DNA from: an uncultured Coriobacteriales bacterium
Lineage (GTDB): Bacteria; Actinomycetota; Coriobacteriia; Coriobacteriales; UMGS124
Direction of reading: 5' to 3'
Length of the DNA stretch: 64,000 bases
NCBI GenBank assembly: GCA_934636245.1
Contig: CAKUAI010000014.1
Location: forward strand, 31,258-95,257
Every line of letters begins with the position of its first letter. The stretch's first letter is position 1. The notes under the pieces were generated by a model. The model did not search any database. It was given only the letters and a program-made list of their open reading frames with translations, and was not told the DNA's origin. The translations under genes and the position numbers were made by a program. Shown here one piece after another: positions 1-62,757 of this stretch.

Positions 1-63
1 CGACAATACAACCTCAGGGGTGATGTGCTTTTTAGCGTCCCATGCGCCCCACCGCACGAAAAA

Positions 64-92
64 GGCCCCGCGGGCGCGAAGCTCGCGGGGCC
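64..92. terminator. GC-rich hairpin GGCCCCGCG-N11-CGCGGGGCC just downstream of the minus-strand Fe-S gene
   Basis: Perfect 9-bp inverted repeat. The same structure recurs at 5624..5652 between convergent genes. There is no clear T-tract. Confidence 0.45.
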
Positions 93-163
93 TTGGGGAC
101 CGACCGGGGGTATGAGGGGGACGTCACGGCCGGCCCCACGTCAGGCGCCGAGGCGCCCAGGCC

Positions 164-793
164 TTACTGCATGGAGACGTCGCCGCCCTGCCAGGCCATG
201 CGGCGCAGGATGTAGACGCCCTGGGGCGCGTTGCCCTCGTCGTCCAGGCGGTAGAGGTCGCCCTCGGCGTACTCCTCCACGAAGTCGCCCAGGGTCTCGC
301 CGCGCGGGCCCTTGAAGGTCTCGATGCCCTCGTCGAGGTCGCCGTACCAGCGGGCCATGCCGCCGCACTGCGTGACGCACTGGGGCAGGCCGCCCTCGGA
401 GGTGATGCTCGCGCACAGGTCGCACTTCTCGGCGACGGAGGTGTCCACGTCGACGTAGCGGCAGCCGTAGGGGCAGGCCGTGAGGCACGCGCCGCAGCCG
501 ATGCACTGGTCGCGGTCGATCTGGACGGTGCCGTCCTCCTCGTTGATGCGCGAGGCGCCGGTGGGGCACACCGTCACGCACTCGGGGCTCGCGCAGTGCT
601 GGCAGGACACGGGCAGGAAGTACATGTCGACGTCGGGCCAGTTGCCGCCCTCCTGGCGGGGGAAGGGGCCCTGGCGCAGCACCTTGTTGCGGAAGGAGCC
701 GACGCGCACGTCGTTGACCGTCTTGCAGGCGACGATGCAGCCCAGGCAGCCGACGCAGCGGTTCAGGTCGGTGACGATAGTCTTGTGTGCCAT
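164..793 (-). CDS. 4x[4Fe-4S] ferredoxin-type electron-transfer subunit (DmsB/NrfC-like) of a molybdopterin oxidoreductase
   Basis: 209-aa ORF with Cys clusters CVGCLGCIVAC, CQHCASPECVTVCP, CIGCGACLTACP and CDLC...C. The ATG lies 3 nt after the stop of the upstream Mo-subunit gene. Confidence 0.9.
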   Translation of the reverse strand: MAHKTIVTDLNRCVGCLGCIVACKTVNDVRVGSFRNKVLRQGPFPRQEGGNWPDVDMYFLPVSCQHCASPECVTVCPTGASRINEEDGTVQIDRDQCIGCGACLTACPYGCRYVDVDTSVAEKCDLCASITSEGGLPQCVTQCGGMARWYGDLDEGIETFKGPRGETLGDFVEEYAEGDLYRLDDEGNAPQGVYILRRMAWQGGDVSMQ

Positions 794-796
794 CGC

Positions 797-3784
797 TTAC
801 GCCTCGTTTCGAATCTCGTAGTTGGGCATCCAGTCGAGCAGGCGCGGGTCGGAGGCGTCGCAGATGATGGGCGTGCCGTCTTCGCCGCAGGGCACCGGGT
901 TGCCGAAGGGGGAGTTCTCGGCCGTGGCCTTGTAGACCTTGACGTTGTAGGAGCGCAGGTAGGACGCGCCGCAGATGGGGTCCTGGTCGTCGGGGGTCAC
1001 CAGGCAGTTGATGGTGGACAGCTCGAAGCCGCCGCCGGCCTGGTCGAGCTCGGGGTACCACCACTGGTGCTCGCAGTTGATGACGCCGGGCTCCACGCCG
1101 TAGTACAGGTCCACGGTCTGGCGCACCTTGCCCTCCGGGCTCTCGATCCACACCCAGTCGCCCTGCCCCACGCCCAGCCTCTCGGCGTCGGCGGGGTTGA
1201 TCTCGCACTTGGGCACGGGCCACAGCTCGCGGCACCAGGGCAGCTGACGGTGCTCGGAGTGGAAGTACACCGGGATGCGGCGGCCGGTGGTCATGAGGAA
1301 CGGCCACTCCTCGACGATGGAGGGGTCGGCGAGCTCGGTGCGGGGCGCGGGCTCCCAGGAGGGAAGGTTGAACTTGCCCGAGGGCTCGTAGGTCTCCATG
1401 ACGGTGGACCAGAGCTCCTGCTTGCGGGTGGGCGTGGAGAAGCCCTTCATCGGGTTGCCGGCAGGCGTGAGACCCACAATCTTCGGCTCGCTCATCATGC
1501 CGGTCTCGTAGCGGCGGTACGTGCCCCAGACCTCGGGGTTGATCTCGCGGCAGTCCCACCAGCCGTGCTTCTGGAAGGCCTCCTTGTAGCCCTGCCAGTC
1601 AACGCCCATCGGGGCGACGACGCCCGAGAGCAGCGTCTCGACGTCGGGCCAGTAGTTGCCCTCGCCATAGCCCGAGGCGACCGGGTCGTCGCACCAATGC
1701 ACCCCCATGGCCTTGTACAGGTCGAGGACGATCTGCAGGTCGAACTTGCAGTCGGCGGGAGGCTCGATGCAGCAGCAGTTTGCACCCTGCGCACCGGTCG
1801 CGCCCTGCGAGAGGCGCGGGAAGTCGACCTCGAGCCAGTGGAGGACGGGCAGGATGATGTCGGCGGCGCCGGTCGTCGGGGTCTTCCACAGGTCCTGGAC
1901 CACAAAGAAGTCGAGGGCGTTGAGGGCGTCCCAGTACTTGAGGGAATTGCCCTGGTTCATGAAGCCGGAGGCCTCGCAGAGTCCACCGCGCACGGGGTAG
2001 GGGTCGCCCGTGAGGATTGCGTCGGCGACGGCGTTGGCATCGGCCCACTGCTGCCACCAAGACAAGGTCGGGATGCGATCATGGCCGAGGATCTTCTCAG
2101 GGAAGACGGAGAAGTCAACACCCTCGCCGTGCTCGGCGGCCAGAAGGGGCTGCGAGTCGTCCATGCGCTTGAACATGCCGCAGCTCGGGCCGCGCATGCC
2201 GGCGGGCGTGTCAAAGTTGCCGGTGATGCCGCAGAGGTTGTCGAGGGCGCGGTTGTTCTGAATGGCGTTGCAGGCGTGCTCGGCCGCGAGCATGTACTGC
2301 AGGCCGCCGTTACCGTACCCCGTGGAGGGGTCGATGGGCGTGGCCCAGGTGAGGGCGGCGTTGCGAATGTCGTCAGCCGAAACGCCGGTGATTTCCGCAG
2401 CAATCTCGGGCGTGAACTCATGGGCGCGAGCCGCATAGTGCTCCCAGACAGGCTTCATCTGGTAGGTTTTGCCGTCCTTGAGCGTGACCTCGAACTCGCC
2501 GTAGATGGCAGGGTCGATCTCGGGGTCGAACGGGCTCTGTTCGGCGATGCGGCCAGGGACCGTACCCTTGGGCAGGTTGGGCTGGGGGTTGTCGTAGAAC
2601 TTGTCCCACACGACGTCGGGCTCGTTCTCCCACAGGCCCGTCTGGGCATCGAAGTAGGTGAGGTGGCCGGAAGGGTCGTTCTCATGCAGCGGGTGGTCAG
2701 CGTCGGTGCCGGCAAGCTCGTCCCACACCATGAAGCGCTGGGGGCTGCCGCCCTCCTTGAGGTCGCACTCCTTGAGAAGGGTCGTGGACATCGTCTTGCA
2801 GAGGCTCCAGGCAATCTTATGCTGCACCGGCACTTCGCCGGAAGGCTCCATGCCGTCGACCACGAGGAAGGGGGCGTCGGTCCAGCGCTTCACGTACAGG
2901 TCGTTGTACAGCTTATTCTCGATGACGACATCGGTCCAGGCAAGAGCCAGTGCGCCGTCGGTGCCGGGCTTGAGGTACATGTGGATGTCGGCCTCGTGGC
3001 CCAGGTTGGTCATGCGCGGGTCGACGGAAATGTAGGCCTCGGCGGTCTTGGCAAGGTCAACCGTGGTACGGCAGCTCTCGTCGTAGTTGGAGATCTCGGA
3101 GGCGCCGCCCCAAGAGACGAAGACGCGGGGACGGTCGGTGGTGGCCATCCAGGAGTAGGAGTACTCCGAGACCATCATCGATGCCATGTGGCGCGGGCCC
3201 TTGCAGATCTGCCAGGCGGTCACCGCGTTGGGGCTTCCCGTCATCTGCAGCCACGCGGCATAGGCGTGCTGTGTCCAGATGCGGCTCGTGCCGCCCATGA
3301 AGAACAGCGACTCGGGGCCGTACTTGTCCATGAACTCATGGAACTTCTCGGCGATAGTGCCGTACGCCTCATCCCAGGAGATGCGCACCCAACCCGGGTC
3401 GGTGGAACCCTTGGGATTCGTGCGCTTCATGGGGTGGTAGACGCGGTTGGGATGATAGGCAGCCTGGATGGACGCCTGGCTCTTGGTGCAGCAGTTGCCC
3501 ATCGAATGGAACGCCGTCTCGGCGTCGCCCTCGACCTTGACCGCACGGCCGTCCTTCACGGTGACGATGACGCCGCACTCGTTCTTGCCGCAGGCGCGGC
3601 AGCAGGTGCGGACGAGCTTCACGCCGTCGCCCTGGTCGCCCATCTCGGTCTTGACAAGATCAGTCTTGTCGAGCGGAATCTCAGCAAGAGCGCTCAGGGG
3701 TGCGCTTGCAAAGGCCGCTGCCGCACCGGCGATTGCCGCCACTTTGGCAAACGTACGGCGCGTCATGCTTTTCTGCATGTCCAT
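797..3784 (-). CDS. Molybdopterin (bis-MGD, DMSO-reductase superfamily) oxidoreductase catalytic subunit, Tat-exported
   Basis: The ORF spans 797..3856. The preferred ATG is at 3784 (MDMQKSMTRRTFAKVAAIAGAAAAFA, a twin-arginine signal) with GGGAGG upstream. There is an N-terminal Cys motif CCRACGKNEC...C (FS0 cluster). The C-terminus resembles a molybdopterin-dinucleotide-binding domain (INPADAERLGVGQGDWVWIESPEGKV). Confidence 0.9.
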   Translation of the reverse strand: MDMQKSMTRRTFAKVAAIAGAAAAFASAPLSALAEIPLDKTDLVKTEMGDQGDGVKLVRTCCRACGKNECGVIVTVKDGRAVKVEGDAETAFHSMGNCCTKSQASIQAAYHPNRVYHPMKRTNPKGSTDPGWVRISWDEAYGTIAEKFHEFMDKYGPESLFFMGGTSRIWTQHAYAAWLQMTGSPNAVTAWQICKGPRHMASMMVSEYSYSWMATTDRPRVFVSWGGASEISNYDESCRTTVDLAKTAEAYISVDPRMTNLGHEADIHMYLKPGTDGALALAWTDVVIENKLYNDLYVKRWTDAPFLVVDGMEPSGEVPVQHKIAWSLCKTMSTTLLKECDLKEGGSPQRFMVWDELAGTDADHPLHENDPSGHLTYFDAQTGLWENEPDVVWDKFYDNPQPNLPKGTVPGRIAEQSPFDPEIDPAIYGEFEVTLKDGKTYQMKPVWEHYAARAHEFTPEIAAEITGVSADDIRNAALTWATPIDPSTGYGNGGLQYMLAAEHACNAIQNNRALDNLCGITGNFDTPAGMRGPSCGMFKRMDDSQPLLAAEHGEGVDFSVFPEKILGHDRIPTLSWWQQWADANAVADAILTGDPYPVRGGLCEASGFMNQGNSLKYWDALNALDFFVVQDLWKTPTTGAADIILPVLHWLEVDFPRLSQGATGAQGANCCCIEPPADCKFDLQIVLDLYKAMGVHWCDDPVASGYGEGNYWPDVETLLSGVVAPMGVDWQGYKEAFQKHGWWDCREINPEVWGTYRRYETGMMSEPKIVGLTPAGNPMKGFSTPTRKQELWSTVMETYEPSGKFNLPSWEPAPRTELADPSIVEEWPFLMTTGRRIPVYFHSEHRQLPWCRELWPVPKCEINPADAERLGVGQGDWVWIESPEGKVRQTVDLYYGVEPGVINCEHQWWYPELDQAGGGFELSTINCLVTPDDQDPICGASYLRSYNVKVYKATAENSPFGNPVPCGEDGTPIICDASDPRLLDWMPNYEIRNEA

Positions 3785-3891
3785 GTTCCTCCCTTGTGTT
3801 TCCTCTACGTCTTTGTGCATCCGAGGTCGTGCTCGGCGGCTGCACGGTGCAATCATTGACTACGCAGGGGGTCCGGGAGAACTTTCAGACT

Positions 3892-3963
3892 TATGGTTTG
3901 GTGTATGATTGGCGGCGCCAGGTGACCTGTCTGAAACCGTTCGGTTTTATGGGTTGACAGAAA
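3892..3963. promoter_or_regulatory. Two conserved intergenic islands: TATGGTTTGGTGTATGATT (3892..3910) and GTTTTATGGGTTGACAGAAA (3944..3963), separated by 33 nt
   Basis: These are the only alignable blocks between the two paralogous divergent intergenic regions (partner 9447..9531). The spacing is the same in both. The second island contains a TTGACA -35-like hexamer. Confidence 0.5.
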
Positions 3964-4010
3964 ACTCCCTGGTTACATGCGAATTTTTACCAAAGCACCT
4001 AAAAGGAACA

Positions 4011-5579
4011 ATGGAGATGCACGGCATGACTGAACAAAATGAGGCCAACGCCATGAACAGCGAAAGCAGCATCTCGGCGCTCGTACGACCCGATTTGTTG
4101 GGCTTCTCATTTCACCTGGCTTGGCTCTGCCTCTTCATATACAACGTGGTTCCCGGATTTGCCGGACGATCGGACCACAACATTGAGTTCGGCGTGTTCA
4201 ACCCCGTCTATTTTTACTCGATGGTCAGCCTCGTCGTCGTGCTTGGCTACGGAATCGCGAAGACAAAGAACTTCATGCACCTTGCGCGGTCGCGCGTTGG
4301 AGTTGTCGCGGCACCAGTTGCCTGCTCTCTTGGCACGCTCATCTACGCTCTCTCGGCATCGGGATTGACACCCGCCGCCCTCAACACCGCCCTGCTCGTT
4401 GTCGGCGGCATCCTGAGCGGCGCTGGCTCGGCGTTTTTGGCCGCACACTGGGCAAGCGCCTTCGGCCGGGCAAAGGCAAGGGCGTTCGTCGTCAACCTCC
4501 CGCTTATTTTTGCCGCCGTCCTTATCACGTGCCTGGCAATAACCTACGTCTTTGCCGCGATCGCGCTTGTGTTCGCCACGCTGCTCCCCCTAGCATCGGG
4601 CGGCTGCCTCATATATGCCGACCGCTATGCGGCGTCCCTGGCCGACCAGGCCCGCCCAGATACCGACAGAACCGAGTCGAAGCCTTCGCACTCCCGCCGC
4701 ATCTATTTGATACTCATCGCCGCCGTGTGCCTCATCGGCCTCACAACGGGAAGCCTCAACCAAATCAGGTCGATCAACGCGGGCTATTGTTTCGCCTTTT
4801 CATGCATCACTTCGGTGCTCATTCTCCTTATAACGGGCTGGCTTATTGTCCAAGACAATCCGAAGGCGTTTCTTCCCCTGTTCGTCGCGCCGCTCGTCGT
4901 TTTCCTCATTTTTGCACTGCCCCTCATCCGCTTCACTCCAAATGATGCGCCTGGTATCGTGTATGCCATAGGAAGCGTGACGCGTGAGCTTATGCTCATG
5001 TTCGAGGCAGTGCTGTTCGCGCTGCTCTTTGACTTGTCATGTGCCAAAACGTTCATGATCGGTCGAGTCGTCATGGCCCTGTCCGACCTCTGTGGTGCGC
5101 TGTGCGCGGCCGCCATCATGGAGCACCTGGGCAACCAGGCAGGTGCGCAGTTTGCAGGCGGCGTGCTTCTCGTTGGATCCGAGGTCATTATCGCAGGCCT
5201 GCTCATGATGTACCTGCTTCTTCGTCGCAAGTCTCTCGCCACGCCGTCGCTCAACACGCGTGCGGCCGGCGTAGATACAGCAGCCCAGGAGGCGACCACG
5301 CGCCCAGAAGACGCCGCGGACACATCGCAGCCAGATGAGAGCGCCGCATCGCAAAGCGAGATTGTGGCGAACCTCACCGCCGAGCGATTCGGCCTCTCCC
5401 CTCGCGAGGCCGACGTGCTGAGGCTGCTCGTCGCCGGCGAGTCAACCACTCAGATTCAAGACACGCTCTGCATCGCCCCCGGCACGTTCAACTACCACAT
5501 GCGCAACATCTACTCCAAGCTCGGCGTGCACTCCCGCCAGGAGCTGCTCGTTTTCATCTACAACCAGCCGGAACAATAA
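4011..5579 (+). CDS. Membrane-embedded LuxR/GerE-family transcriptional regulator (polytopic N-terminal sensor-like domain plus C-terminal HTH)
   Basis: The ORF spans 3909..5579; the preferred ATG is at 4011 after AAGGA. Many hydrophobic helices fill the first ~430 aa. The C-terminal HTH reads LSPREADVLRLLVAGESTTQIQDTLCIAPGTFNYHMRNIYSKLGVHSRQEL. Confidence 0.85.
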   Translation: MEMHGMTEQNEANAMNSESSISALVRPDLLGFSFHLAWLCLFIYNVVPGFAGRSDHNIEFGVFNPVYFYSMVSLVVVLGYGIAKTKNFMHLARSRVGVVAAPVACSLGTLIYALSASGLTPAALNTALLVVGGILSGAGSAFLAAHWASAFGRAKARAFVVNLPLIFAAVLITCLAITYVFAAIALVFATLLPLASGGCLIYADRYAASLADQARPDTDRTESKPSHSRRIYLILIAAVCLIGLTTGSLNQIRSINAGYCFAFSCITSVLILLITGWLIVQDNPKAFLPLFVAPLVVFLIFALPLIRFTPNDAPGIVYAIGSVTRELMLMFEAVLFALLFDLSCAKTFMIGRVVMALSDLCGALCAAAIMEHLGNQAGAQFAGGVLLVGSEVIIAGLLMMYLLLRRKSLATPSLNTRAAGVDTAAQEATTRPEDAADTSQPDESAASQSEIVANLTAERFGLSPREADVLRLLVAGESTTQIQDTLCIAPGTFNYHMRNIYSKLGVHSRQELLVFIYNQPEQ

Positions 5580-5623
5580 CGGCACACGCATCACATGGGC
5601 GATTTACGCCCCCAAACGCAAAC

Positions 5624-5652
5624 GGCCCCGCGGGCGCAAGGCTCGCGGGGCC
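5624..5652. terminator. Hairpin GGCCCCGCG-N11-CGCGGGGCC between the convergent LuxR (+) and Fe-S (-) genes
   Basis: Perfect 9-bp inverted repeat located between stop codons at 5579 and 5724. Confidence 0.5.
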
Positions 5653-5723
5653 GTGGGGGCCGACCGGGGGTATGAGGGGAACGTCACTGCCGGCCCCGTG
5701 TCAGGCGCCGAGGCGCCCGGGTC

Positions 5724-6353
5724 TTACTGCATCGAGACGTCGCCGCCCTGCCAGGCCATGTGGCGCAGGATGTAGACGCCCTGGGGGGCGTTGCCCTCGT
5801 CGTCCAGGCGGTAGAGGTCGTCGTCGGTGTAGGCCTCGACGAAGTCGCCCAGGGTCTCGCCGCGCGGGCCCTTGAAGGACTCGATGCCCTCGTCCAGGTC
5901 GCCGTACCAGCGGGCCATGCCGCCGCACTGCGTGACGCACTGGGGAAGCCCGCCCTCGGAGGTGATGGAGGCGCACAGGTCGCACTTCTCCGCCACCGAG
6001 GTGTCCACGTCGACGTAGCGGCAGCCGTAGGGGCAGGCCGTCAGGCACGCGCCGCAGCCGATGCACTGGTCGCGGTCGATCTGGACGGTGCCGTCCTCCT
6101 CGTTGATGCGCGAGGCGCCGGTGGGGCACACCGTCACGCACTCGGGGCTCGCGCAGTGCTGGCAGGACACGGGCAGGAAGTACATGTCGACGTCGGGCCA
6201 GTTGCCGCCCTCCTGGCGGGGGAAGGGGCCCTGGCGCAGCACCTTGTTGCGGAAGGAGCCGACGCGCACGTCGTTGACCGTCTTGCAGGCGACGATGCAG
6301 CCCAGGCAGCCGACGCAGCGGTTCAGGTCGGTGACGATAGTCTTGTGTGCCAT
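5724..6353 (-). CDS. 4x[4Fe-4S] ferredoxin-type subunit, paralogue of 164..793
   Basis: 209 aa. It differs from copy 1 at only a handful of C-terminal residues (for example EGIESFKG, EAYTDDDL, LRHMAW). Confidence 0.9.
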   Translation of the reverse strand: MAHKTIVTDLNRCVGCLGCIVACKTVNDVRVGSFRNKVLRQGPFPRQEGGNWPDVDMYFLPVSCQHCASPECVTVCPTGASRINEEDGTVQIDRDQCIGCGACLTACPYGCRYVDVDTSVAEKCDLCASITSEGGLPQCVTQCGGMARWYGDLDEGIESFKGPRGETLGDFVEAYTDDDLYRLDDEGNAPQGVYILRHMAWQGGDVSMQ

Positions 6354-6356
6354 CGC

Positions 6357-9338
6357 TTACGCCTCGTTTCGAATCTCGTAGTTGGGCATCCAGTCGAGCA
6401 GGCGCGGGTCGGAGGCGTCGCAGATGATGGGCGTGCCGTCTTCGCCGCAGGGCACCGGGTTGCCGAAGGGGGAGTTCTCGGCCGTGGCCTTGTAGACCTT
6501 GACGTTGTAGGAGCGCAGGTAGGACGCGCCGCAGATGGGGTCCTGGTCGTCGGGGGTCACCAGGCAGTTGATGGTGGACAGCTCGAAGCCGCCGCCGGCC
6601 TGGTCGAGCTCGGGGTACCACCACTGGTGCTCGCAGTTGATGACGCCGGGCTCCACGCCGTAGTACAGGTCCACGGTCTGGCGCACCTTGCCCTCCGGGC
6701 TCTCGATCCACACCCAGTCGCCCTGCCCCACGCCCAGCCTCTCGGCGTCGGCGGGGTTGATCTCGCACTTGGGCACGGGCCACAGCTCGCGGCACCAGGG
6801 CAGCTGACGGTGCTCGGAGTGGAAGTACACCGGGATGCGGCGGCCGGTGGTCATGAGGAACGGCCACTCCTCGACGATGGAGGGGTCGGCGAGCTCGGTG
6901 CGGGGCGCGGGCTCCCAGGAGGGAAGGTTGAACTTGCCCGAGGGCTCGTAGGTCTCCATGACGGTGGACCAGAGCTCCTGCTTGCGGGTGGGCGTGGAGA
7001 AGCCCTTCATCGGGTTGCCCGCGGGAGTCTCGCCGATAGCACTCATCCTGCCCGTTTCATAACGGCGGTAGGTGCCCCAGACCTCGGGGTTGATGGCACG
7101 GCAGTCCCACCAGCCGTGCTCCTGGAAGGACTCCTTGTACTCCTGCCAGGTAAGCCCCGTCGTTGAGATGGTGCGGTCGTAAAGTTGCTCAGTCGTGGGC
7201 CACTGAACACCCTCGGGCAGACCGTACGACACGGGGTCATCAGCCCACGGAATGCCCATCCTCTTATAGACATCAAGAATGATGTCGACATCGAAGTGGC
7301 AGTCTGCGGGAGGCTCGATGCAGCGGCAGTTCGCGCCCTGGGCGCCGGTGGCACCCTGGGACAGGCGCGGGCAGTCGACCTCGAGCCAGTGGCACACAGG
7401 CAGCACGATGTCGGCGGCGCCCACCGTGGGGGTCTTCCACAGGTCCTGGACCACGAAGAAGTCGAGCGAGTTGAGCGCGTCCCAGTACTTGAGGGAGTTG
7501 CCCTGGTTCATGAAGCCGGAGGCCTCGCAGAGTCCTCCGCGCACGGGGTAGGGGTCGCCCGTGAGCATGGCGTCGGCGATGGCGTTGGCGTCGGCCCACT
7601 GCTGCCACCAGCCAAGCGTGGGGATCTTGTCAATACCAACGATCTTGTCAGTCCACAGGCTCCAGTCGACACCATCATAGTGGCCAGAGGTAATCGTCGG
7701 CTGAGCGTCATCAACGCCTGCATACAGACCCAGCGAAGGACCGCGCATGCCGGCAGGCGTGTCGAAGTTGCCGGTGATGCCGCAGAGGTTATCGAAGATA
7801 CGGTTGTTCTGGATGGCGTTGCAGGCGTGCTCGGCCGCGAGCATGTACTGCAGGCCGCCGTTGCCGTAGCCCGTGGAGGGGTCGATGGGCGTGGCCCATG
7901 TCAGGCAGGCGTTCTCAATCTCATCGGCAGGAATGCCGGTGATCTTGGAGGCAGTGTCGAGGTCGTACTTGGCGGCCTCGGCGGCATAGAGCTCCCAGAC
8001 GGGCTGCATGGAGTAGGTCTTGCCGTCCTTGAGCGTGACCTCGAACTCGCCGTAGATGGCGGGGTCGATCTCGGGGTCGAACGGGGACTCCTCGGCGATG
8101 CGGCCGGGCACGACGCCCTTGGGGAGGTTGGGCTGGGGGCTCTCGTAGAACTTGTCCCACACGACGTCGGGCTCGTCCTCCCACAGGCCCGTCTCGGCGT
8201 CGAAGTAGGTCAGGTGGCCGGAGGGGTCGTTCTCATGCAGCGGGTGGTCGGCGTCGGTGCCGGCGAGCTCGTCCCACACCATGAAGCGCATAGGCGAGCC
8301 GCCCTCGACAAGGTCGCACTCCTTGAGCAGGCGCGTGGCCATGGGCTTTCCGCTCGTCCACTCAATCTTATGGTCAATGGGCACGCCGCCGGAGGGCTCC
8401 ATGCCGTCGACCACGAGGAAGGGGGCGTCGGTCCAACGCTTGACGTAGAGGTCCTTGTAGAGCTTGTTCTGAATAATAAGGTTGGTCCACGCGAGACCGA
8501 GGGCGCCGTCGGTGCCGGGCTTGAGGTACATGTGGATGTCGGCCTCGTGGCCCAGGTTGGTCATGCGCGGGTCGACAGACACATAAGTGTCGGCACTCGT
8601 GGCGATATCAACCGTGGTACGGCAGCTCTCGTCGTAGTTGGAGATCTCGGAGGCGCCGCCCCATGCGACGAAGACGCGGGGACGGTCGGTGGTGGCCATC
8701 CACGAGTAGGCGAACTCGGAGACCATCTCGGTGGCCATGTGGCGCGGGCCCTTGCAGATCTGCCAGGCGGTCACGGCGTTGGGCGAACCCACGAGCTGAA
8801 GCCATGAGCCGTAGGCGTGCTGGGTCCAGATGCGCGAGGTGCCGCCCATGAAGAACATGGACTCTCCGCCGTACTTGTCCTTGAGCTCCTGGAACTTCTC
8901 GGCGATGGTGTCGTACGCCTCGTCCCAGGAGATGCGCACCCAGCCGGGGTCGGTTGAGCCCTTGGGGTTCGTGCGCTTCATGGGGTGGTAGACGCGGTTG
9001 GGGTGGTAGGCGGCCTGGATGGACGCCTGGCTCTTGGTGCAGCAGTTGCCCATCGAGTGGAACGCCGTCTCGGCGTCGCCCTCGACCTTGACCGCGCGGC
9101 CGTCCTTGACGGTGACGATGACGCCGCACTCGTTCTTGCCGCAGGCGCGGCAGCAGGTGCGGACGAGCTTCACGCCGTCGCCCTGGTCGCCCATCTCGGT
9201 CTCGACAAGCTCGTTGTCGAGCGGCAGGGCCGACTCGGCGAGCGCGGCGAGCGGGGCCCCCGCGAAGGCCGCGGCCGCGCCGGCGATTGCCGCCACTTTG
9301 GCGAACGTACGACGCGTCATGCTTTTCTGCGTGTCCAT
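6357..9338 (-). CDS. Molybdopterin oxidoreductase catalytic subunit, Tat-exported, paralogue of 797..3784
   Basis: The ORF spans 6357..9401. The preferred ATG is at 9338 (MDTQKSMTRRTFAKVAAIAGAAAAFAGA) after GGGAGG. It has the same FS0 Cys motif. The C-terminal ~220 aa are identical to copy 1, while the N-terminal ~770 aa are clearly diverged. Confidence 0.9.
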   Translation of the reverse strand: MDTQKSMTRRTFAKVAAIAGAAAAFAGAPLAALAESALPLDNELVETEMGDQGDGVKLVRTCCRACGKNECGVIVTVKDGRAVKVEGDAETAFHSMGNCCTKSQASIQAAYHPNRVYHPMKRTNPKGSTDPGWVRISWDEAYDTIAEKFQELKDKYGGESMFFMGGTSRIWTQHAYGSWLQLVGSPNAVTAWQICKGPRHMATEMVSEFAYSWMATTDRPRVFVAWGGASEISNYDESCRTTVDIATSADTYVSVDPRMTNLGHEADIHMYLKPGTDGALGLAWTNLIIQNKLYKDLYVKRWTDAPFLVVDGMEPSGGVPIDHKIEWTSGKPMATRLLKECDLVEGGSPMRFMVWDELAGTDADHPLHENDPSGHLTYFDAETGLWEDEPDVVWDKFYESPQPNLPKGVVPGRIAEESPFDPEIDPAIYGEFEVTLKDGKTYSMQPVWELYAAEAAKYDLDTASKITGIPADEIENACLTWATPIDPSTGYGNGGLQYMLAAEHACNAIQNNRIFDNLCGITGNFDTPAGMRGPSLGLYAGVDDAQPTITSGHYDGVDWSLWTDKIVGIDKIPTLGWWQQWADANAIADAMLTGDPYPVRGGLCEASGFMNQGNSLKYWDALNSLDFFVVQDLWKTPTVGAADIVLPVCHWLEVDCPRLSQGATGAQGANCRCIEPPADCHFDVDIILDVYKRMGIPWADDPVSYGLPEGVQWPTTEQLYDRTISTTGLTWQEYKESFQEHGWWDCRAINPEVWGTYRRYETGRMSAIGETPAGNPMKGFSTPTRKQELWSTVMETYEPSGKFNLPSWEPAPRTELADPSIVEEWPFLMTTGRRIPVYFHSEHRQLPWCRELWPVPKCEINPADAERLGVGQGDWVWIESPEGKVRQTVDLYYGVEPGVINCEHQWWYPELDQAGGGFELSTINCLVTPDDQDPICGASYLRSYNVKVYKATAENSPFGNPVPCGEDGTPIICDASDPRLLDWMPNYEIRNEA

Positions 9339-9446
9339 GTTCCTCCCTTTCAAATCACGTACATCGATATGCACCGGGCTAAACACCCGATGCGTGGACA
9401 AGACACATTTTTGCGCCAGCTCTGCTTTCGTTTAAACACATGTGCC

Positions 9447-9531
9447 TATGGTTTGGCGTATTGTTTGGTGTATCATTTACGGCGTATGCATGCCCATAAA
9501 CAACAGTAGAGTTTTTATGGGTTGACTGAAA
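9447..9531. promoter_or_regulatory. Conserved islands TATGGTTTGGCGTATTGTTTGGTGTATCATT (9447..9477; the 12-mer GTTTGGYGTATN is duplicated in tandem) and GTTTTTATGGGTTGACTGAAA (9511..9531), separated by 33 nt
   Basis: Paralogous footprint of 3892..3963. The surrounding intergenic sequence cannot be aligned. Confidence 0.5.
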
Positions 9532-9565
9532 TACCTGCTGTTTTGGTTGAAGGGGACACCAAGGG

Positions 9566-11131
9566 ATGGCAAAGATACAACCGAATGCTTCAGGTCTCTC
9601 TGCAGAAACACCTGAAACGAGGCTTGCCCTGGCATCACTTGTCCAACCGGACCTTCTCGGCTTTGCCTTCCACCTTTCCTGGCTCTGCCTCTTCATGTAC
9701 AACGTCATTCCGGGATTCGCTGGTAACGAAGACGCCGGTTTCAACGCGCTTAATCCTGTATATTTCTTCTCTGCCATTAGCCTGATGGCAGTGCTGTGCT
9801 TCGGCATAGCCAAGACGCGCACCTTCATGCAGATTGTTCGCTCAAAAACAGGATGCTATGTAGCACCAATTGTCTGCTCAATCGGCACCCTCTTTTACGC
9901 ACTTTGCGCCATGAACGTCATCCCGCAAACCGCAATGACGCCGCTACTATTGCTCGGCGGCATCATGACGGGAGCAAGTTCGGCTATGCTTGCGGCACAT
10001 TGGGCAAGCGTGTTCGGACGCGCAAAGGCACGAGCGGTCATCATGAACTTCACGATCATACTCGTAGCCGTTCTCATAGCCTGTCTTGCCATCTCGTATT
10101 TGCTCCCCACCATGTCGCTTATCGTGGCAACGCTGTTGCCGCTTGCCTCAGGTGCATCTCTTATATATGCCGACAAACACGCTTTTGAATCCGCTGGCTC
10201 GAATACTCCCCAGGTCAAGCGCCGCCGCAATCAAAAGGCATACGCCATTTTGTCTGGTGCCGTTGCATTGCTGGGACTTTCCACGGGATGCCTTCCCCAA
10301 TTCAGCATCGATGGGAGCAACTTCGACCAGCTGTTTTATTCCATAACGTCGGTCATCACCCTGGGAGCAATTGGTTGGCTTGTTGCCAGGGAAGAACGCT
10401 CCGCATTGCCCGCGTTGTATATTGCACCGCTTGCCATTCTTGGCGTTTTCGCGTTGCCCTACATTCGATTTACAGGCAACGATACCGTAGGGCTTTTCTA
10501 CGCTTTGGGAAATGCCTCGCTTGAACTCATGCTGCTTTTCGAAGCCGTGCTGTTCGCGCTGCTTTTTGATTTTTCTTGCGCACGTACATACATGATTGCA
10601 CGCCTTACGATGGCCGTTTCCGACCTGGGAGGCTGGCTCTTGTCATGTGTAATCGTCCAAACATGGGGCGCAGGAGCAGTAGTACAAGCTGCGGCGGCCG
10701 CCATCCTCATCGGCTCAGAAGTCGTAATCACAGCATTACTAGTTACATACCTACTTCTGCGTCGCAAGTCCCTCACCACATCTGACCTCAACACGCGCGC
10801 GGCGGGCGTGGATTCTGTAGACGAAAGTGACGAAACAGATGACGAGGTCGTCAAGAGGCGCATGACACCAGCCGATATTGATTCCTCAACTTACGGTGCC
10901 ACAACGGCCGCAGATTTCGCGGCGGAACGCTTTGGCCTCTCCCCTCGCGAGGCCGACGTGCTGAGGCTGCTCGTCGCCGGCGAGACGACCGCGCAGATTC
11001 AAGAAGCACTCTGCATCGCCCCGGGCACCTTCAACTACCACATACGCAACATCTTTACCAAGCTCGGCGTGCACTCCCGCCAAGAGCTTCTCATATGCGT
11101 CCGTGACCTGCAAGAACAGCGAAAACAATAA
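9566..11131 (+). CDS. Membrane-embedded LuxR/GerE-family regulator, paralogue of 4011..5579
   Basis: 521 aa with a polytopic hydrophobic N-terminal domain. The C-terminus reads LSPREADVLRLLVAGETTAQIQEALCIAPGTFNYHIRNIFTKLGVHSRQEL. GC looks lower than in neighbouring genes, by eye. Confidence 0.85.
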   Translation: MAKIQPNASGLSAETPETRLALASLVQPDLLGFAFHLSWLCLFMYNVIPGFAGNEDAGFNALNPVYFFSAISLMAVLCFGIAKTRTFMQIVRSKTGCYVAPIVCSIGTLFYALCAMNVIPQTAMTPLLLLGGIMTGASSAMLAAHWASVFGRAKARAVIMNFTIILVAVLIACLAISYLLPTMSLIVATLLPLASGASLIYADKHAFESAGSNTPQVKRRRNQKAYAILSGAVALLGLSTGCLPQFSIDGSNFDQLFYSITSVITLGAIGWLVAREERSALPALYIAPLAILGVFALPYIRFTGNDTVGLFYALGNASLELMLLFEAVLFALLFDFSCARTYMIARLTMAVSDLGGWLLSCVIVQTWGAGAVVQAAAAAILIGSEVVITALLVTYLLLRRKSLTTSDLNTRAAGVDSVDESDETDDEVVKRRMTPADIDSSTYGATTAADFAAERFGLSPREADVLRLLVAGETTAQIQEALCIAPGTFNYHIRNIFTKLGVHSRQELLICVRDLQEQRKQ

Positions 11132-11216
11132 CCCAACCATACACCCGTATGGGTGACTCGTCCCCCAGTTCAACCCTAGGATTGCAGCATCGCAACCACA
11201 TGAGGAGTTGATGAGG

Positions 11217-11957
11217 ATGAGCCAGATGGAAAACGACGAAATCGAGTGCGGCGACCCTGATTGCGGAGCGCAGGCAGCATGGCAGCCCGGCCCAACGCTG
11301 CAGGAATCGATTGCAAAGGCCGCAGGGCACCGCGATGCCGATGATGCCAAGGCTTTGGAGAAGCTGATGCAGCGCATGTCCACGCGACGCAGCTCCCTGC
11401 TGGGCATTCTTGACCTTTGCCGCGAGCCCCACGGCGCCGCCGAGGTCGATGCCTGCGTCGCTAAGCTGCAGGCGCACAATGCAAGCGTCTACGACGGGGC
11501 CGCGCTTTGCTCCATGCTGCAGCAGGCAGGCGCGCTTGAGACCGTGGCCGATGAAGACGAGACGGCCGACACCGACGACGAGCCCCAGATCGAGGTTGTC
11601 GACGGAGTCGAGTACCTGCGCCCGGCCAAGCCCGCTCAGAAGCTCTGGCGGACAACTGAGATTGGCCTTGCATACCTCGACAGCTTCGACCCGAAGGCCG
11701 ACCTTGCCCGCCTGCTGGCGGACGACGCCGCGTACATGGACATCTACCTGCGCGTGCTCGACATGTGCGCCGACAACGGCGGCACCACGACGCCCGCGCT
11801 TTCGGCTGCCATCGACAAGGACCCCCTCGTGCAGTTGCCGCGCTTCTTTGCCCAGCATTTCACCGAGCGTCTTGAGAAGGCCGGCGCAGTGGAATGGGAC
11901 GGTGCCTGGAAAATCACCGACTTGGGGCGCTCCTACCTTGAGGACGCATCGCACTAA
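11217..11957 (+). CDS. Hypothetical acidic cytoplasmic protein with two similar helical, possibly winged-helix-like halves
   Basis: The ORF spans 11208..11957. The ATG at 11217 lies 9 nt after GAGGAG. There is no signal peptide or TM segment. Internal similarity: LLGILDLCREPHGAAEVDACV resembles YLRVLDMCADNGGTTTPALSA. I recognised no family. Confidence 0.55.
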   Translation: MSQMENDEIECGDPDCGAQAAWQPGPTLQESIAKAAGHRDADDAKALEKLMQRMSTRRSSLLGILDLCREPHGAAEVDACVAKLQAHNASVYDGAALCSMLQQAGALETVADEDETADTDDEPQIEVVDGVEYLRPAKPAQKLWRTTEIGLAYLDSFDPKADLARLLADDAAYMDIYLRVLDMCADNGGTTTPALSAAIDKDPLVQLPRFFAQHFTERLEKAGAVEWDGAWKITDLGRSYLEDASH

Positions 11958-12056
11958 TCCCTCGAAAAGCCACCAAGGCGAACAGGGCCACATGCATTCG
12001 AAAGTCGGCGTTGCAACCGCCGCAACGCCGACGCACAACAAGACAAGGACGACACC

Positions 12057-12917
12057 ATGAACCGCGAGGAATGCACCAAGAACCGCGTTATCAACCCCAA
12101 TTTCGACGCCTCCCCCAAGCCTGAGGCAGTGGCCCAGCTCACGCCCACCCCTGAGCTCATCGCCTCCCTCGCCGCCGCAGAGAAGGCACCCCATGCAGCA
12201 AGGACGCTGGGCGACATCGACCTGGGGAAGATGGAGGCAGAGGAGCTTGAAGAGCTCGCCGGCGCCTGCGAGTCGCGCGCAAACATGTATGCGCTGCTCA
12301 GCCGTGTCTATCGCGTTGAGGCCGACCAGGCCCTTCTTGACCAGCTGCAGGCAGCGAACTATGCAGCGAACACGGGCAACAAGGACGTCGACGAGGGGTA
12401 TCGCCTGCTCGTGAAGTGGCTGGGGCAGACCTGGGAGCACAGCCTGCTCGACCTTGCGAAGGACTACGTGCGCGCGTTCATCGGCTACACCGGCGACCAC
12501 GCAAGCGCCGCTTACCCCTTCGAGAGTGTGTACCGCTCCGAGAAGCACCTGCTGATGCAGGAATCTCGTGACGAGGTGCTGGCCTGCTACCGCGCCGCCG
12601 GCCTTGAGAAGGACGAGAGTTGGCGCGAAGGCGAGGACCATGTGGCGTTGGAGTTCGAGTATATGAGCACCATGGCAACCCGCTCCGCCGATGCCTTGCG
12701 CTCGGCGGACACGAAGCTTGCCCAGGGCCTGCTCAACGACCAGTCGCATTTCCTGCAGGACCATCTCAACGCATGGGTGCCCAACTTCACGAAGGATGTG
12801 GAGCGCTGCGCAACCACGAAGTTCTACCGCGGCTTTGCACTCATCACGCGCGGATACCTCGAGTGCGAGATGGAGCTCTTCGGCGACCTGGCCGCGCAGG
12901 TAGAAAAGGCCGCGTAG
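12057..12917 (+). CDS. TorD/DmsD-family redox-enzyme maturation chaperone with a ~70-aa N-terminal extension
   Basis: The core YPFESVYRSEKHLLMQESRDEVLACYRAAGL...EDHVALEFEYMS is typical of the TorD/DmsD/NarJ family. Confidence 0.8.
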   Translation: MNREECTKNRVINPNFDASPKPEAVAQLTPTPELIASLAAAEKAPHAARTLGDIDLGKMEAEELEELAGACESRANMYALLSRVYRVEADQALLDQLQAANYAANTGNKDVDEGYRLLVKWLGQTWEHSLLDLAKDYVRAFIGYTGDHASAAYPFESVYRSEKHLLMQESRDEVLACYRAAGLEKDESWREGEDHVALEFEYMSTMATRSADALRSADTKLAQGLLNDQSHFLQDHLNAWVPNFTKDVERCATTKFYRGFALITRGYLECEMELFGDLAAQVEKAA

Positions 12918-13124
12918 TACGCGCTCAAAAGGTCGGGCCACACCACTCGACAAACATGCGACTCCAAGGGGCCGCCGCATCCCGGTCTGAACTGCGCGGG
13001 TGCGGCGGCCCCTTTGCCTACGTTTTCAGTGTGATGCCCTGTGAACTTGCGTTTCGGCAGGCGGGGTGCAGGCATTTGGAGTATCGTCCTTGCGTCAAAC
13101 TCTTATCACAACGGGGGTAACGCA

Positions 13125-14009
13125 ATGTACGACAACATGCCCGAACTCGGCCGCAACGACGCCTGCTGGTGTGGAAGCGGCAAGAAGTACAAGAAGTGCC
13201 ACGAGGCCATCGACACCCGACTGCAGGAGCTCTACATGCAGGGCGAGGAGGTGCCGAGCAGGGTTCTGCTCAAGACCCCGGCCGACATCGAGGGCATCAA
13301 GGCGTCCGCCGAGGTAAACGTGGGTGTGCTCGACTACGTGGGCGAGCACATCAAGGCCGGCGTCACCACCGCCGACATCAACCGCTGGGTGGAGGAATAC
13401 CTGGCCGCGCATGACGCGGTGAGCGCCGACCTCAACTACGAGGGCTATCCCTTCAGCGTGTGCACCTCGGTGAACGACGTCATCTGCCACGGCTTTCCCA
13501 ACGAGAACGAGGTGCTGCACGACGGCGACATCATCAACGTCGACATGTCCACCATCAAGGGCGGCTATTTCTCCGACTCCTCGCGCATGTACTGCATCGG
13601 CGAGGTGAGCGAGGAACGCAAGCGCCTCGTGGAGACCTGCAAGGCCGCGGTCGAGGCCGGCCTTGCCGCCGTGAAGCCTTGGGCGCATCTGGGCGATGTG
13701 AGCGCCGCCGTGAACAAGGTGGCCACCGACGCCGGCTTCTCGGTGGTGGCCGAGTACGGCGGCCACGGCATCGGCAAGGAGTTCCACGAGGACCCCTTCG
13801 TGAGCTTCGTGGAAGAGGCTGGCACCGGCCCCATCATGGCGCCGGGCATGTGCTTCACCATCGAGCCCATGGTGAACGCCGGCGAGGCCACCATCACCAC
13901 CGACGAGGACAACGGCTGGATTGTGCGCACCGCCGACGGCAGCGACTCCGCCCAGTGGGAGGTCCAGCTCGTCGTCACCGAGACGGGATATGAGCTGCTG
14001 AGCTGGTAG
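13125..14009 (+). CDS. map: Type I methionine aminopeptidase with an N-terminal SEC-C zinc motif
   Basis: The ORF spans 13041..14009; the ATG is at 13125 after GGGGG. Motifs: CWCGSGKKYKKCH, VCHGFPN, DIINVDMS, GHGIG, FTIEPM. Confidence 0.92.
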   Translation: MYDNMPELGRNDACWCGSGKKYKKCHEAIDTRLQELYMQGEEVPSRVLLKTPADIEGIKASAEVNVGVLDYVGEHIKAGVTTADINRWVEEYLAAHDAVSADLNYEGYPFSVCTSVNDVICHGFPNENEVLHDGDIINVDMSTIKGGYFSDSSRMYCIGEVSEERKRLVETCKAAVEAGLAAVKPWAHLGDVSAAVNKVATDAGFSVVAEYGGHGIGKEFHEDPFVSFVEEAGTGPIMAPGMCFTIEPMVNAGEATITTDEDNGWIVRTADGSDSAQWEVQLVVTETGYELLSW

Positions 14010-41940: not shown

Positions 41941-42819
41941 TCACGCCAGCGCATCGCGCTCCAGCTTGGCCAGCATGCGCTTTGCTCGCCAACTGACTGC
42001 ACGCACGGGCAGGTGAACGCGCGTATAGAACACGCCCTTGATGGGCAAAGCATGGGAGGTGTACGCATCTCCTGCCTGCTCAAACCCATATTCGTCCATA
42101 AACGCCCGCAATTTTTTGCGCGTGCTACCGTCCCTGTCAAAACCAGGGATTTTATCCGCATCGGCCGCGTAAGCGATTTCCACGCAAGGACAACCTCCCA
42201 CCTGAACCGGCGGCCGGCTCGCAAGTGATAGCTGCGGCAACAAGGGCGCATCGCATGCGTATACAATCCGTCCCCATTTCGGCAAGTCAAGACAATCCGA
42301 GAAAAAATCCCCCTCGATAATTGAGCCAAACGTTGCTATCGGCATACTCCGGATGAGTACATCCTGTGCTGGATCAGGCACATGGTTGTCATAACCAGTC
42401 TCGCATTCATCGAAATAGACAAGGGCCGGGCGACCGACGGAAAGGCGAGGCATAGGCCCCCGATGTATATCGTCGCAGATAGCTTTAAGCGTCTCCAGGG
42501 AGTCTTGAACCGCAGCATGCCATGCCTGCTGGCGCATATTTTGCTCCGAAAGTCTGCCAACGAACTCCGAAGCGTCCTCGGTCTTTTCCATGACAACCTG
42601 GGCGTCAGCCACTTCAAAACCTGCATTTTTTAGCATGTTAAGCTGAGCGACGCTAAAAACGTCGTCATTCGTGTACACGCGATAGTTTGAATCAGGGTCA
42701 CGCACGGGCGAGATAACGCCGATTTGCTCGTAATAGCGCAGCGTATTGCGAGAAATGCCCAGAACGCTCAGCAGCGTCTTGATGGTATAGGTCTTGCCCC
42801 GTGCGCTTTCGGTCGTCAT
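41941..42819 (-). CDS. MerR-family transcriptional regulator with a C-terminal effector-binding-like domain
   Basis: The N-terminal HTH reads YTIKTLLSVLGISRNTLRYYEQIGVISPVRDPDSNYRVYTNDDV. 292 aa. It lies directly downstream of the reductase at 42925..44508 on the same strand. GC looks lower by eye. Confidence 0.85.
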   Translation of the reverse strand: MTTESARGKTYTIKTLLSVLGISRNTLRYYEQIGVISPVRDPDSNYRVYTNDDVFSVAQLNMLKNAGFEVADAQVVMEKTEDASEFVGRLSEQNMRQQAWHAAVQDSLETLKAICDDIHRGPMPRLSVGRPALVYFDECETGYDNHVPDPAQDVLIRSMPIATFGSIIEGDFFSDCLDLPKWGRIVYACDAPLLPQLSLASRPPVQVGGCPCVEIAYAADADKIPGFDRDGSTRKKLRAFMDEYGFEQAGDAYTSHALPIKGVFYTRVHLPVRAVSWRAKRMLAKLERDALA

Positions 42820-42924
42820 ATCATGCCCCCGTTTGCCGGCCCCGTACCGAACAATCGAGTGGATGATACCAAAAGGGGCTGCCGTTCAATCCCGGCAGCC
42901 CCCATGGATCAATCTAGTTAATGC

Positions 42925-62707: not shown

Positions 62708-62757
62708 TCTCGTTTGCCTTCCCACCGCTTCAGGCCGTTTTCAGCCCGGGTACCGTC

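Follow-up and report, generated by a model that had tools for sequence, protein, structure and literature searches.

Tandem sensor and molybdoenzyme modules, probably of the Eggerthella-type catechol dehydroxylase family, with a gene-converted 3' part in an uncultured Coriobacteriales bacterium

Introduction

The locus described here consists of two adjacent modules, each pairing a molybdoenzyme operon with a divergent gene for a membrane LuxR-type sensor, and lies at the start of a 64,000-nucleotide stretch of DNA (the window) from an uncultured Coriobacteriales bacterium (assembly GCA_934636245.1, contig CAKUAI010000014.1, positions 31,258 to 95,257 of the forward strand). The closest described systems are the catechol dehydroxylase loci of Eggerthella lenta. 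In the hypervariable cluster of E. lenta, El Vadh, (+)-Eddh, Cadh, (-)-Eldh1 and eCadh are each accompanied by their own divergent regulator (PMC11887054), and this cluster has been proposed to be a hot spot for duplication and diversification (Dong 2025, PMC11887054). The LuxR proteins DadR, CadR and HcdR, which have 10-12 transmembrane (TM) helices, activate divergent catechol dehydroxylase operons in response to the substrate of the enzyme (PMC9734109).

The locus shares with the E. lenta cluster the head-to-tail modules, the operon for a molybdoenzyme exported by twin-arginine translocation (Tat) with its divergent TM-LuxR gene, and the accessory set at one end. It differs in having two modules where E. 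lenta has five to nine, in lacking the gene of the C subunit (membrane anchor), in the identity of its catalytic (A) paralogues (84.5% here, 46-52% there) and in a 977-bp tract that is identical between the copies. With Dadh and its regulator DadR (E. lenta A2; Maini Rekdal 2019/2020, Dong 2022), the A subunits share 50.8% full-length identity, the domain order, the Tat signal, the FS0 motif, the equivalent of Arg506 and the Cys of a QICKGP motif. Dadh likewise has a divergent 12-TM LuxR activator, and it needs a TorD-like and a hypothetical accessory gene. However, the Dadh system has DadhC, the LysR partner DadS, a helicase-domain protein and nearby membrane ferredoxins, none of which is present here.

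Our preferred reading, which we consider likely, is a pair of paralogous respiratory reductase modules that belong to the Eggerthella-type catechol dehydroxylase family, are probably induced by substrate, derive from an old duplication and have been homogenised in their 3' part. The kind of system and the array layout have already been published. New here are a natural form with an A and an iron-sulfur (B) subunit and no C subunit, a close pair of paralogues, and the clear gene conversion of a 3' 'chassis'.

Architecture of the tandem locus

The unit, composed of an iron-sulfur subunit gene (FeS, minus strand), a molybdoenzyme gene (Mo, minus strand) and a LuxR gene (plus strand), is present twice, head-to-tail, with a period of about 5,560 bp. 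A repeat search over positions 1-14,000 gave direct-repeat families with start-to-start spacings of 5560, 5551, 5554, 5558, 5543 and 5537 bp, and the two repeat copies correspond to 49-5608 and 5609-11150. An initial annotation made from the sequence had described a 5,560-bp tandem duplication with this gene order; the direct-repeat spacings of 5537-5560 bp agree with the 5.56-kb periodicity, and the open reading frame (ORF) table reproduces the gene positions and the order.

In the first copy, FeS1 (164..793, minus strand) encodes a DmsB/PsrB-like B subunit of 209 aa with four predicted [4Fe-4S] clusters and without a signal peptide. Mo1 (797..3784, minus strand; ORF 797-3856) encodes a catalytic subunit of about 995 aa of the bis-molybdopterin guanine dinucleotide (bis-MGD) type with a Tat signal, and Lux1 (4011..5579, plus strand; ORF from a TTG at 3909) encodes a multi-TM LuxR-type sensor/activator of about 520 aa. 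The corresponding genes of the second copy are FeS2 (5724..6353, minus strand; 209 aa, with 6 aa differences from FeS1, all within aa 151-200), Mo2 (6357..9338, minus strand; ORF 6357-9401), whose 993-aa product is a paralogue of Mo1, and Lux2 (9566..11131, plus strand), which encodes a multi-TM LuxR-type sensor/activator of 521 aa. The likely true Mo starts are 3784 and 9338, each preceded by a GGGAGGA ribosome-binding site, and the likely start of Lux1 is 4011 or 4017. In both copies the FeS gene starts 3 nt after the stop of the A gene, and a terminator follows about 70 nt past FeS. The intrinsic terminator hairpin 3' of FeS1 (64..92, minus strand) reads GGCCCCGCG...CGCGGGGCC, then TTTTT on the minus strand, and was matched by the terminator scan at 82-65. 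The hairpin 3' of FeS2 (5624..5652, minus strand), which was also matched by the scan, has an identical stem and two changes in the loop, so the shared terminator reported in the initial annotation is present.

The proteins of the two copies are 97.1% (FeS), 84.5% (Mo) and 52.6% (LuxR) identical, and all close homologues are from Coriobacteriales. Both modules are also found on a 114,991-bp ENA scaffold from another sample (L040), which is 99.88% identical to the window over 10.8 kb; the tandem arrangement is thus not peculiar to one assembly. Past FeS1 this scaffold continues with genes for a flavoprotein, a GerE protein, phosphoenolpyruvate carboxykinase (PEPCK) and a major facilitator superfamily (MFS) transporter, so the copy number is exactly two.

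Mosaic divergence and gene conversion

The similarity between the two copies is uneven along the unit. Nucleotide identity is 87% in the terminator and spacer, 93.7% in the 3' part of FeS, 82.1% in Mo outside the identical block, 52.7% in the Mo-LuxR intergenic and promoter regions, 56.1% in the LuxR TM domain and 80.4% in the LuxR helix-turn-helix (HTH). The identical block extends over 977 bp (483..1459 in the first copy, 6043..7019 in the second) without a mismatch, spans Mo aa 800-1019 (domain IV) and FeS aa 1 to about 104, and is bordered by sequence with 6-18% divergence. The probability of a mismatch-free run of 977 bp is below 1e-27 even at the lowest neighbouring divergence.

Protein constraint cannot explain this profile, because the synonymous sites show the same pattern. 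Synonymous divergence (pS) is 0.63-0.87 in the LuxR TM domain, which is saturated, and 0.38-0.45 in the LuxR HTH; it is patchy in the N-terminal part of Mo (0.09-0.60), reaches 0.36-0.53 just upstream of the block, is 0 for Mo beyond aa 800 and for FeS aa 1-100, and is 0.10-0.20 for FeS aa 101-209. As the synonymous sites of the sensors are saturated, the duplication is old. At the protein level, Mo1 and Mo2 are 81.5% identical at aa 84-799 and 100% identical after aa 800, which corrects the earlier description of their N-terminal part as 'only moderately similar'.

The two parts of the catalytic subunit also have different nearest relatives. At aa 84-799, Mo1 is nearest to the related proteins P0001 (94%) and P0002 (87%), and Mo2 to those of the loci L001 (97.5%) and L002 (94%). 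At aa 800-1019, Mo1 and Mo2 are the same, and P0001, which is of the Mo1 type, is nearest to L001, which is of the Mo2 type (98.2%). The trees of the N-terminal and C-terminal parts are accordingly discordant: within the converted part the paralogues of one genome cluster together, and outside it the sequences cluster by type of paralogue. The trees were built by neighbour joining without bootstrap, and the discordance rests on the identity matrices. The 3' part has thus undergone concerted evolution after an old duplication, and the 977-bp block is a gene-conversion tract. Recombination between the copies repeatedly overwrote the 3' part of the operon, and the 977-bp tract is the latest of these events. 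The initial annotation had both pairs diverging from one ancestral sensor/enzyme pair; the tandem duplication is real, but simple divergence falls short of a profile that ranges from saturated to zero pS with discordant trees, which gene conversion has shaped.

The identical block and the FeS 3' part, with its 94% identity, could be read as a sign of true young age, with a recent duplication followed by rapid adaptive divergence of sensor and enzyme in place of age and gene conversion. Such divergence would leave synonymous sites little changed, since positive selection does not raise pS, whereas pS reaches 0.63-0.87 in the sensors and 0.4-0.6 in parts of Mo. In addition, no window has a ratio of nonsynonymous to synonymous divergence (pN/pS) above 1, and the N-terminal parts of Mo1 and Mo2 are each nearer to relatives from other species than to each other. 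A recent duplication is therefore scarcely credible.

The scaffold from the other sample differs from the window at 13 positions, all of them within a 31-bp patch of Mo2 (8577..8607), and at 13/13 it has the Mo1 sequence. Identical runs of 74 and 56 bp flank this patch, so an assembler artefact is possible there; the patch is a candidate for either a polymorphic micro-conversion tract or a bubble-merge artefact.

The tandem or the identical block itself would be artificial if strain variants had been stitched together, or if a collapsed repeat had been threaded twice, during assembly. Bubble merging could erase a few single-nucleotide differences between the copies, the L040 patch lies between two identical runs, and short-read contigs of metagenome-assembled genomes do break within the block or close to it (L003 at window position 1283, L014-L016 at Mo aa 670-710), although such breaks are expected from a real two-copy repeat. 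On the other hand, the window sequence is free of N, and LuxR proteins that are only 52.6% identical are not strain variants. Moreover, the gene order recurs on the 115-kb scaffold, where each flank is unique, and the FeS1 protein was found on three contigs of the 50-200 kb class. We regard an assembly artefact as very unlikely.

Related observations were made in other loci. In an E. lenta-type array (L052:2869-14013), two ABC modules lie side by side. Their A subunits share 48.6% and their B subunits 68.6% identity, both with a pS of 0.62, and the C anchors show 91% identity (pS only 0.26) over their first 138 aa. The published cloning primers for the 3' ends of the Cadh and eCadh C genes are identical. 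These two observations suggest that 3' homogenisation occurs in E. lenta arrays too. Gene conversion was not found in Dong 2025 (PMC11887054), and a full-text literature search on gene conversion of Eggerthella molybdopterin enzymes returned no paper. A contig from a Hadza sample (L041:1-2618) encodes the exact FeS1 protein together with a Mo part closer to copy 2 (92.5% identity) than to copy 1 (90.9%); this contig represents either a third mosaic variant or a chimera.

Origin of module 1

An in situ duplication is favoured because the homology spans the unit exactly, the promoters share a private motif, and module 1 comes without accessory genes. In the LuxR tree, Lux1 is sister to the Lux2 lineage, and it shares only 33% identity with the regulators beside P0002 and P0004.

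The two modules could also have come together without tandem duplication in place, by insertion or recombination of a diverged paralogous module alongside the resident one, followed by gene conversion. The N-terminal part of Mo1 is nearest to P0002 (87.4%), which stands in another context (L043), has a separate accessory gene and is accompanied by a LuxR protein only 33% identical to Lux1, and the strain-variable module content of E. lenta suggests horizontal transfer (Dong 2025, PMC11887054). Yet Lux1 is sister to the Lux2 lineage and not to the regulators of L043 or L044, the homology runs from the terminator to the LuxR stop and ends there, and the promoters share a motif pair that is unique in the window. 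The lack of accessory genes in module 1 is what would be expected if only a sub-unit had been copied. This origin by juxtaposition is unlikely, though far less so than a recent duplication or an artefact.

Four related loci (L001, L002, L004 and L005) have the same flanks on both sides and a single module of the Mo2 type; the flanks are an M24 peptidase, TorD and the hypothetical accessory gene on one side and a flavoprotein or PEPCK on the other. The single module may be real, as a product of deletion or as the ancestral state, or may result from collapse of the 1-kb repeat during assembly, and a test of diagnostic sites for L001 and L002 as deletion or collapse products gave mixed patterns. 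The bins that hold the L004 and L005 contigs carry the names Acutalibacteraceae and Alistipes onderdonkii, which probably reflects binning contamination.

Family and identity of the catalytic subunits

Both Mo1 and Mo2 contain PF04879 (Molybdop_Fe4S4), PF00384 (Molybdopterin) and PF01568 (Molydop_binding), all above gathering scores and in the canonical order, which agrees with the DMSO reductase superfamily assignment of the initial annotation. By sequence, 46 solved members of this superfamily match the Mo subunit, and the best solved-structure match of Mo1 is acetylene hydratase (AHY; 2e7z, 1.7e-50). The Tat signal predicted earlier is also present, as MTRRTFAKV...ALA-E with the twin-arginine motif TRRTFAK. 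The FS0 motif CCRAC-x4-C...CC(T)K aligns with the FS0 Cys residues of Dadh, Cadh and AHY, and the conserved Cys of QICKGP in Mo1 and Mo2 is aligned with the Cys of MYMCIG in AHY. The latter is presumably the tungsten ligand Cys141. Mo1 and Mo2 thus appear to have the same superfamily fold as AHY, with FS0 and metal-ligand Cys positions that align. In contrast, AHY has 730 aa and Mo1 about 270 extra residues in several insertions, and Asp13 of AHY is Gly here. The eLife 2020 supplement likewise names acetylene hydratase as a relative of the catechol dehydroxylase class. Arg506, which predicts Dadh activity (PMC7745125), has its equivalent in the QNNR of both Mo1 and Mo2 (QNCR in Dadh).

For the comparison with characterised enzymes, the sequences of Dadh, Cadh, Hcdh and acetylene hydratase were taken from the alignment deposited with Maini Rekdal et al. 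2020. (-)-Eldh2 (C1858_02810) was identified as P0055 by both published cloning primers, and (+)-Eddh as L051 from gut metagenome contigs by an exact cloning-primer match. The nearest characterised enzyme found was (-)-Eldh2, with a full-length identity of 53.6% to Mo1 and 53.1% to Mo2, followed by Cadh (51.8% and 52.9%), Dadh (50.8% for both) and (+)-Eddh (44.0% and 44.3%). Local identity is 37% and 42% to Hcdh and about 27% for both to acetylene hydratase. Among themselves, the characterised enzymes are 51.6% (Dadh-Cadh), 58.6% (Dadh/(-)-Eldh2) and 57.4% (Cadh/(-)-Eldh2) identical. Since the identity of Mo1 and Mo2 to these enzymes is about as high as that among them, both subunits fall by sequence inside the Eggerthella-type catechol dehydroxylase clade, a placement that rests on identity levels. 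In neighbour-joining trees rooted on Dadh, Cadh branches outside the clade of Mo1, Mo2 and their 72-97% relatives. The suggestion of a catechol dehydroxylase-type enzyme thus holds at the level of the clade, with 51% identity to Dadh, 52-53% to Cadh and 53-54% to (-)-Eldh2. The cut-off used for functional homologues by Dong 2025 is 75% identity, and because all identities, including those to (-)-Eldh2, are below it, the substrate of Mo1 and Mo2 cannot be named. The C-terminal tail also differs, being LPTYEGRE in (-)-Eldh2 and NYEIRNEA here. (+)-Eddh was considered as the nearest characterised enzyme on account of its tail NYTIREEA, known from a cloning primer, which recalls NYEIRNEA; it was rejected at only 44% identity.

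The Gordonibacter-type enzymes (Dodh, Cldh, Gp Hcdh and Eadh1-3) also consist of A and B subunits, belong to the bis-MGD family and carry out catechol chemistry. They are smaller, cytoplasmic and without Tat signal, are encoded beside MFS transporters and share about 20-23% identity with the Eggerthella type. Here, the catalytic subunits have about 995 aa, a size within the range of roughly 950-1200 aa typical of the Eggerthella type, and a Tat motif, and the module has no transporter gene. Being large and carrying a Tat signal, Mo1 and Mo2 are of the Eggerthella type in sequence despite their two-subunit composition. The urolithin-forming Eadh enzymes, which are of the Gordonibacter type, were thus not considered relevant as relatives. 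In NCBIfam, no specific model was found for the module proteins, all matches being far below the equivalog cut-offs.

Both copies appear functional, with intact ORFs, an overall pN/pS of 0.33 for Mo and 0.45 for LuxR, and values below 1 in every 50-codon window.

Differences between Mo1 and Mo2

Between the Mo1 lineage (Mo1 and P0001) and the Mo2 lineage (Mo2, L001 and L002), 82 differences are fixed. More than half of them (56/82, p = 8e-10) are found in aa 451-600 and 651-750 (995-aa numbering, start at window position 3784), and they include the residue beside the Arg506 equivalent (AL vs IF). Differences between Mo1 and Mo2 were also considered as decoration in the insertions that are absent from acetylene hydratase, but no enrichment was seen (18.8% vs 18.3%, p=0.91).

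'Two specificities' are plausible. Most likely, the substrates of Mo1 and Mo2 would be related without being the same, or the two enzymes would differ in the position or the enantiomer that they attack in a single substrate. Alternatively, they could be molybdenum reductases of the clade that act on non-catechols, or could both act on the same substrate and provide dosage or regulatory breadth without a new specificity. Their identity to characterised enzymes is 54% or less and hundreds of clade members are uncharacterised; moreover, (+)-Eldh1 and (+)-Eldh2, which are 74% identical, share a substrate and act at different positions, and Mo1 and Mo2 are more alike than these. However, all characterised enzymes of the Eggerthella-type clade are catechol dehydroxylases, about half of the membrane-domain residues differ between the sensors, and the lineage-fixed differences cluster in two segments. 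We consider action on non-catechols, or on one common substrate, rather unlikely.

Sensors and shared operator motif

The initial annotation of membrane LuxR sensors is supported by a GerE HTH at the C-terminus (E=3.8e-16 for Lux1; about 3.5e-16 for both copies) and by 11 hydrophobic 19-mers in Lux1 and 10 in Lux2, as counted with the Kyte-Doolittle scale, a crude predictor of the 10-11 helices. Both Lux genes are adjacent to and divergent from the Mo operon, as in the DadR/CadR/HcdR family. By analogy, Lux1 and Lux2 would be 10-12-TM LuxR-type activators of this family with substrate-dependent activation.

The motif TATGGKTTG occurs four times in the window, compared with 0.38 expected occurrences. 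Two copies are present in each Mo-LuxR intergenic region and nowhere else, at 3892-3900 and 3948-3956 in divergent promoter region 1 (3785..4010) and at 9447-9455 and 9516-9524 in divergent promoter region 2 (9339..9565). The motif is kept in orthologous loci and not in more distant ones. The recognition helix of the HTH is nearly identical in Lux1 and Lux2, unlike that of the other four TM-LuxR proteins of the window, so Lux1 and Lux2 may recognise the same operator. Since the promoters share the paired motif and the regulators have nearly the same recognition helix, cross-activation is possible. A scan for sigma-70 promoters gave no matches, as expected for this phylum, and neither Rfam families, including the Moco riboswitch, nor tRNA genes were found in the window.

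Iron-sulfur subunits, C anchor and accessory genes

FeS1 matches Fer4_11 (E=2.8e-22), and its translation has 16 Cys in four cluster motifs. In NCBIfam, the FeS subunits are DmsB/NrfC/TtrB-like, below equivalog cut-offs. The GC content at third codon positions (GC3) of the FeS genes (164-793 and 5724-6353) is 0.98-0.99, compared with 0.59-0.72 in the LuxR genes. Such an extreme codon bias is consistent with high expression and lowers the synonymous divergence to be expected.

With the C subunit of L044 as the tblastn query, no C gene was found in the window or in L001, L002, L004, L005, L040 and L043, whereas C homologues were found 3' of FeS in L006-L013, L024, L031-34 and L038-39. Because deletion of dadhC had no effect on dopamine metabolism in the heterologous host Gordonibacter urolithinfaciens (PMC11887054), an enzyme of A and B is plausible.

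Downstream of Lux2, at one end of the array, an accessory pair is present in single copy. The first gene, hyp (11208..11957, plus strand), encodes about 249 aa with no Pfam match, has a GC3 of 0.80 and is DadhE-like in position. The second (12057..12917, plus strand) encodes a TorD-like chaperone of the Tat-proofreading and cofactor-insertion type, which is DadhF-like (Nitrate_red_del E=1.7e-34; TorD model 3.9e-26, below cut-off). Nearly all related loci have a homologue of hyp with their operon; in more than 20 of them such homologues adjoin a LuxR gene or a TorD gene, and the pair is conserved beside the related operons. DadhE and DadhF are needed for Dadh activity (PMC11887054), and the pair, which matches them in position, may have the same role. 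One accessory pair probably matures both enzymes. The initial annotation of each repeat as a 'complete module' has to be corrected on two counts, the C anchor gene being absent and the accessory pair common to both modules.

In the P0002 locus (L043:6465-8003), hyp and the TorD-like gene are fused and encode a 512-aa product with Nitrate_red_del at aa 332-467. A 629-aa ORF on the opposite strand (11091-12980, minus strand) was rejected as spurious antisense of hyp and TorD. It has no family, and its GC content at the three codon positions is 0.78/0.44/0.66, in contrast to 0.66-0.69/0.41-0.44/0.80-0.83 for hyp and TorD on the plus strand.

Surrounding genes

Beyond the modules, the window is a dense sensor-reductase island. 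Positions 14100-44508 contain four more divergent TM-LuxR/flavoprotein (FAD_binding_2) gene pairs with a layout as in the modules, at (minus/plus strand) 14100-15725/15937-17583, 22781-24382/25174-26682, 28136-30193/30575-32080 and 34828-36738/36843-38642. They are joined by a LysR/flavoprotein pair (38667-39572/39823-41424) and by a MerR gene with a flavoprotein gene (41941-44508). A second molybdoenzyme operon on the minus strand (62030-64000) is cut by the window end. It comprises a Molydop_binding C-terminus (63346-63984), a Fer4_11 subunit (62758-63345) and a TorD-like chaperone (62030-62725) that is 27% identical to the product of 12057-12917.

Proposed function and significance

Several points weigh against the proposed reading of the region. 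The identity to all characterised enzymes is far below 75%, and the substrate class is extrapolated; with 81-85% identity between them, a common substrate for Mo1 and Mo2 is conceivable. The locus lacks the C anchor gene that described members of the family have, and neither a membrane ferredoxin gene nor another evident electron donor was seen in the vicinity. Trees of LuxR and of the Mo N-terminal part disagree on the relatives of module 1, which tempers the case for duplication in situ. If short reads were used, bubble merging could have sharpened the 977-bp identity and the L040 patch; it cannot, however, explain the contrast between the block and its neighbouring divergence of 18%.

On the basis of E. 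lenta genetics, the two modules would work as follows. An aromatic ligand would act on the membrane domain of Lux1 or Lux2, and the C-terminal HTH would then switch on the adjacent promoter. The A and B subunits would be assembled with the cofactor and co-exported through Tat, and the enzyme would strip a hydroxyl group from the substrate, which would serve as electron acceptor. Between the modules, the membrane part of the sensors and the central part of A stay distinct; the enzymes would share one electron-transfer 'chassis'.

A wider model, in which arrays evolve as 'cassette plus chassis' and the two sensors converge on the TATGGKTTG operator as a two-input OR gate, is offered tentatively, and we place rather little confidence in it. 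If it is true, conversion would keep domain IV of A, B and, where present, C interchangeable between neighbouring modules, so that they go on fitting shared maturation and electron-transfer partners. Free of conversion, the membrane part of the sensors and the central part of A could explore new ligands. The E. lenta-type array L052 shows a 3' bias of this kind.

Which catechols from diet, drugs and the host are removed by gut Coriobacteriia, among them dopamine, catechins, lignans and urolithin precursors, is decided by their catechol dehydroxylases. Which residues of the enzyme and the sensor determine specificity has been stated as an open problem (Dong 2025, PMC11887054). The locus is a natural near-isogenic pair, with an identical domain IV, near-identical B subunits, 82 fixed differences in mainly two segments and half-diverged sensors, and it narrows the search for specificity residues by mutagenesis or chimeras considerably. 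It also indicates that a Tat-exported enzyme of the Eggerthella type occurs naturally without a C anchor, which fits a dispensable DadhC and raises the question of the electron route. Finally, the locus provides sequence evidence for the idea of a hot spot for duplication and diversification, and adds to it gene conversion, which has not been described for these clusters.

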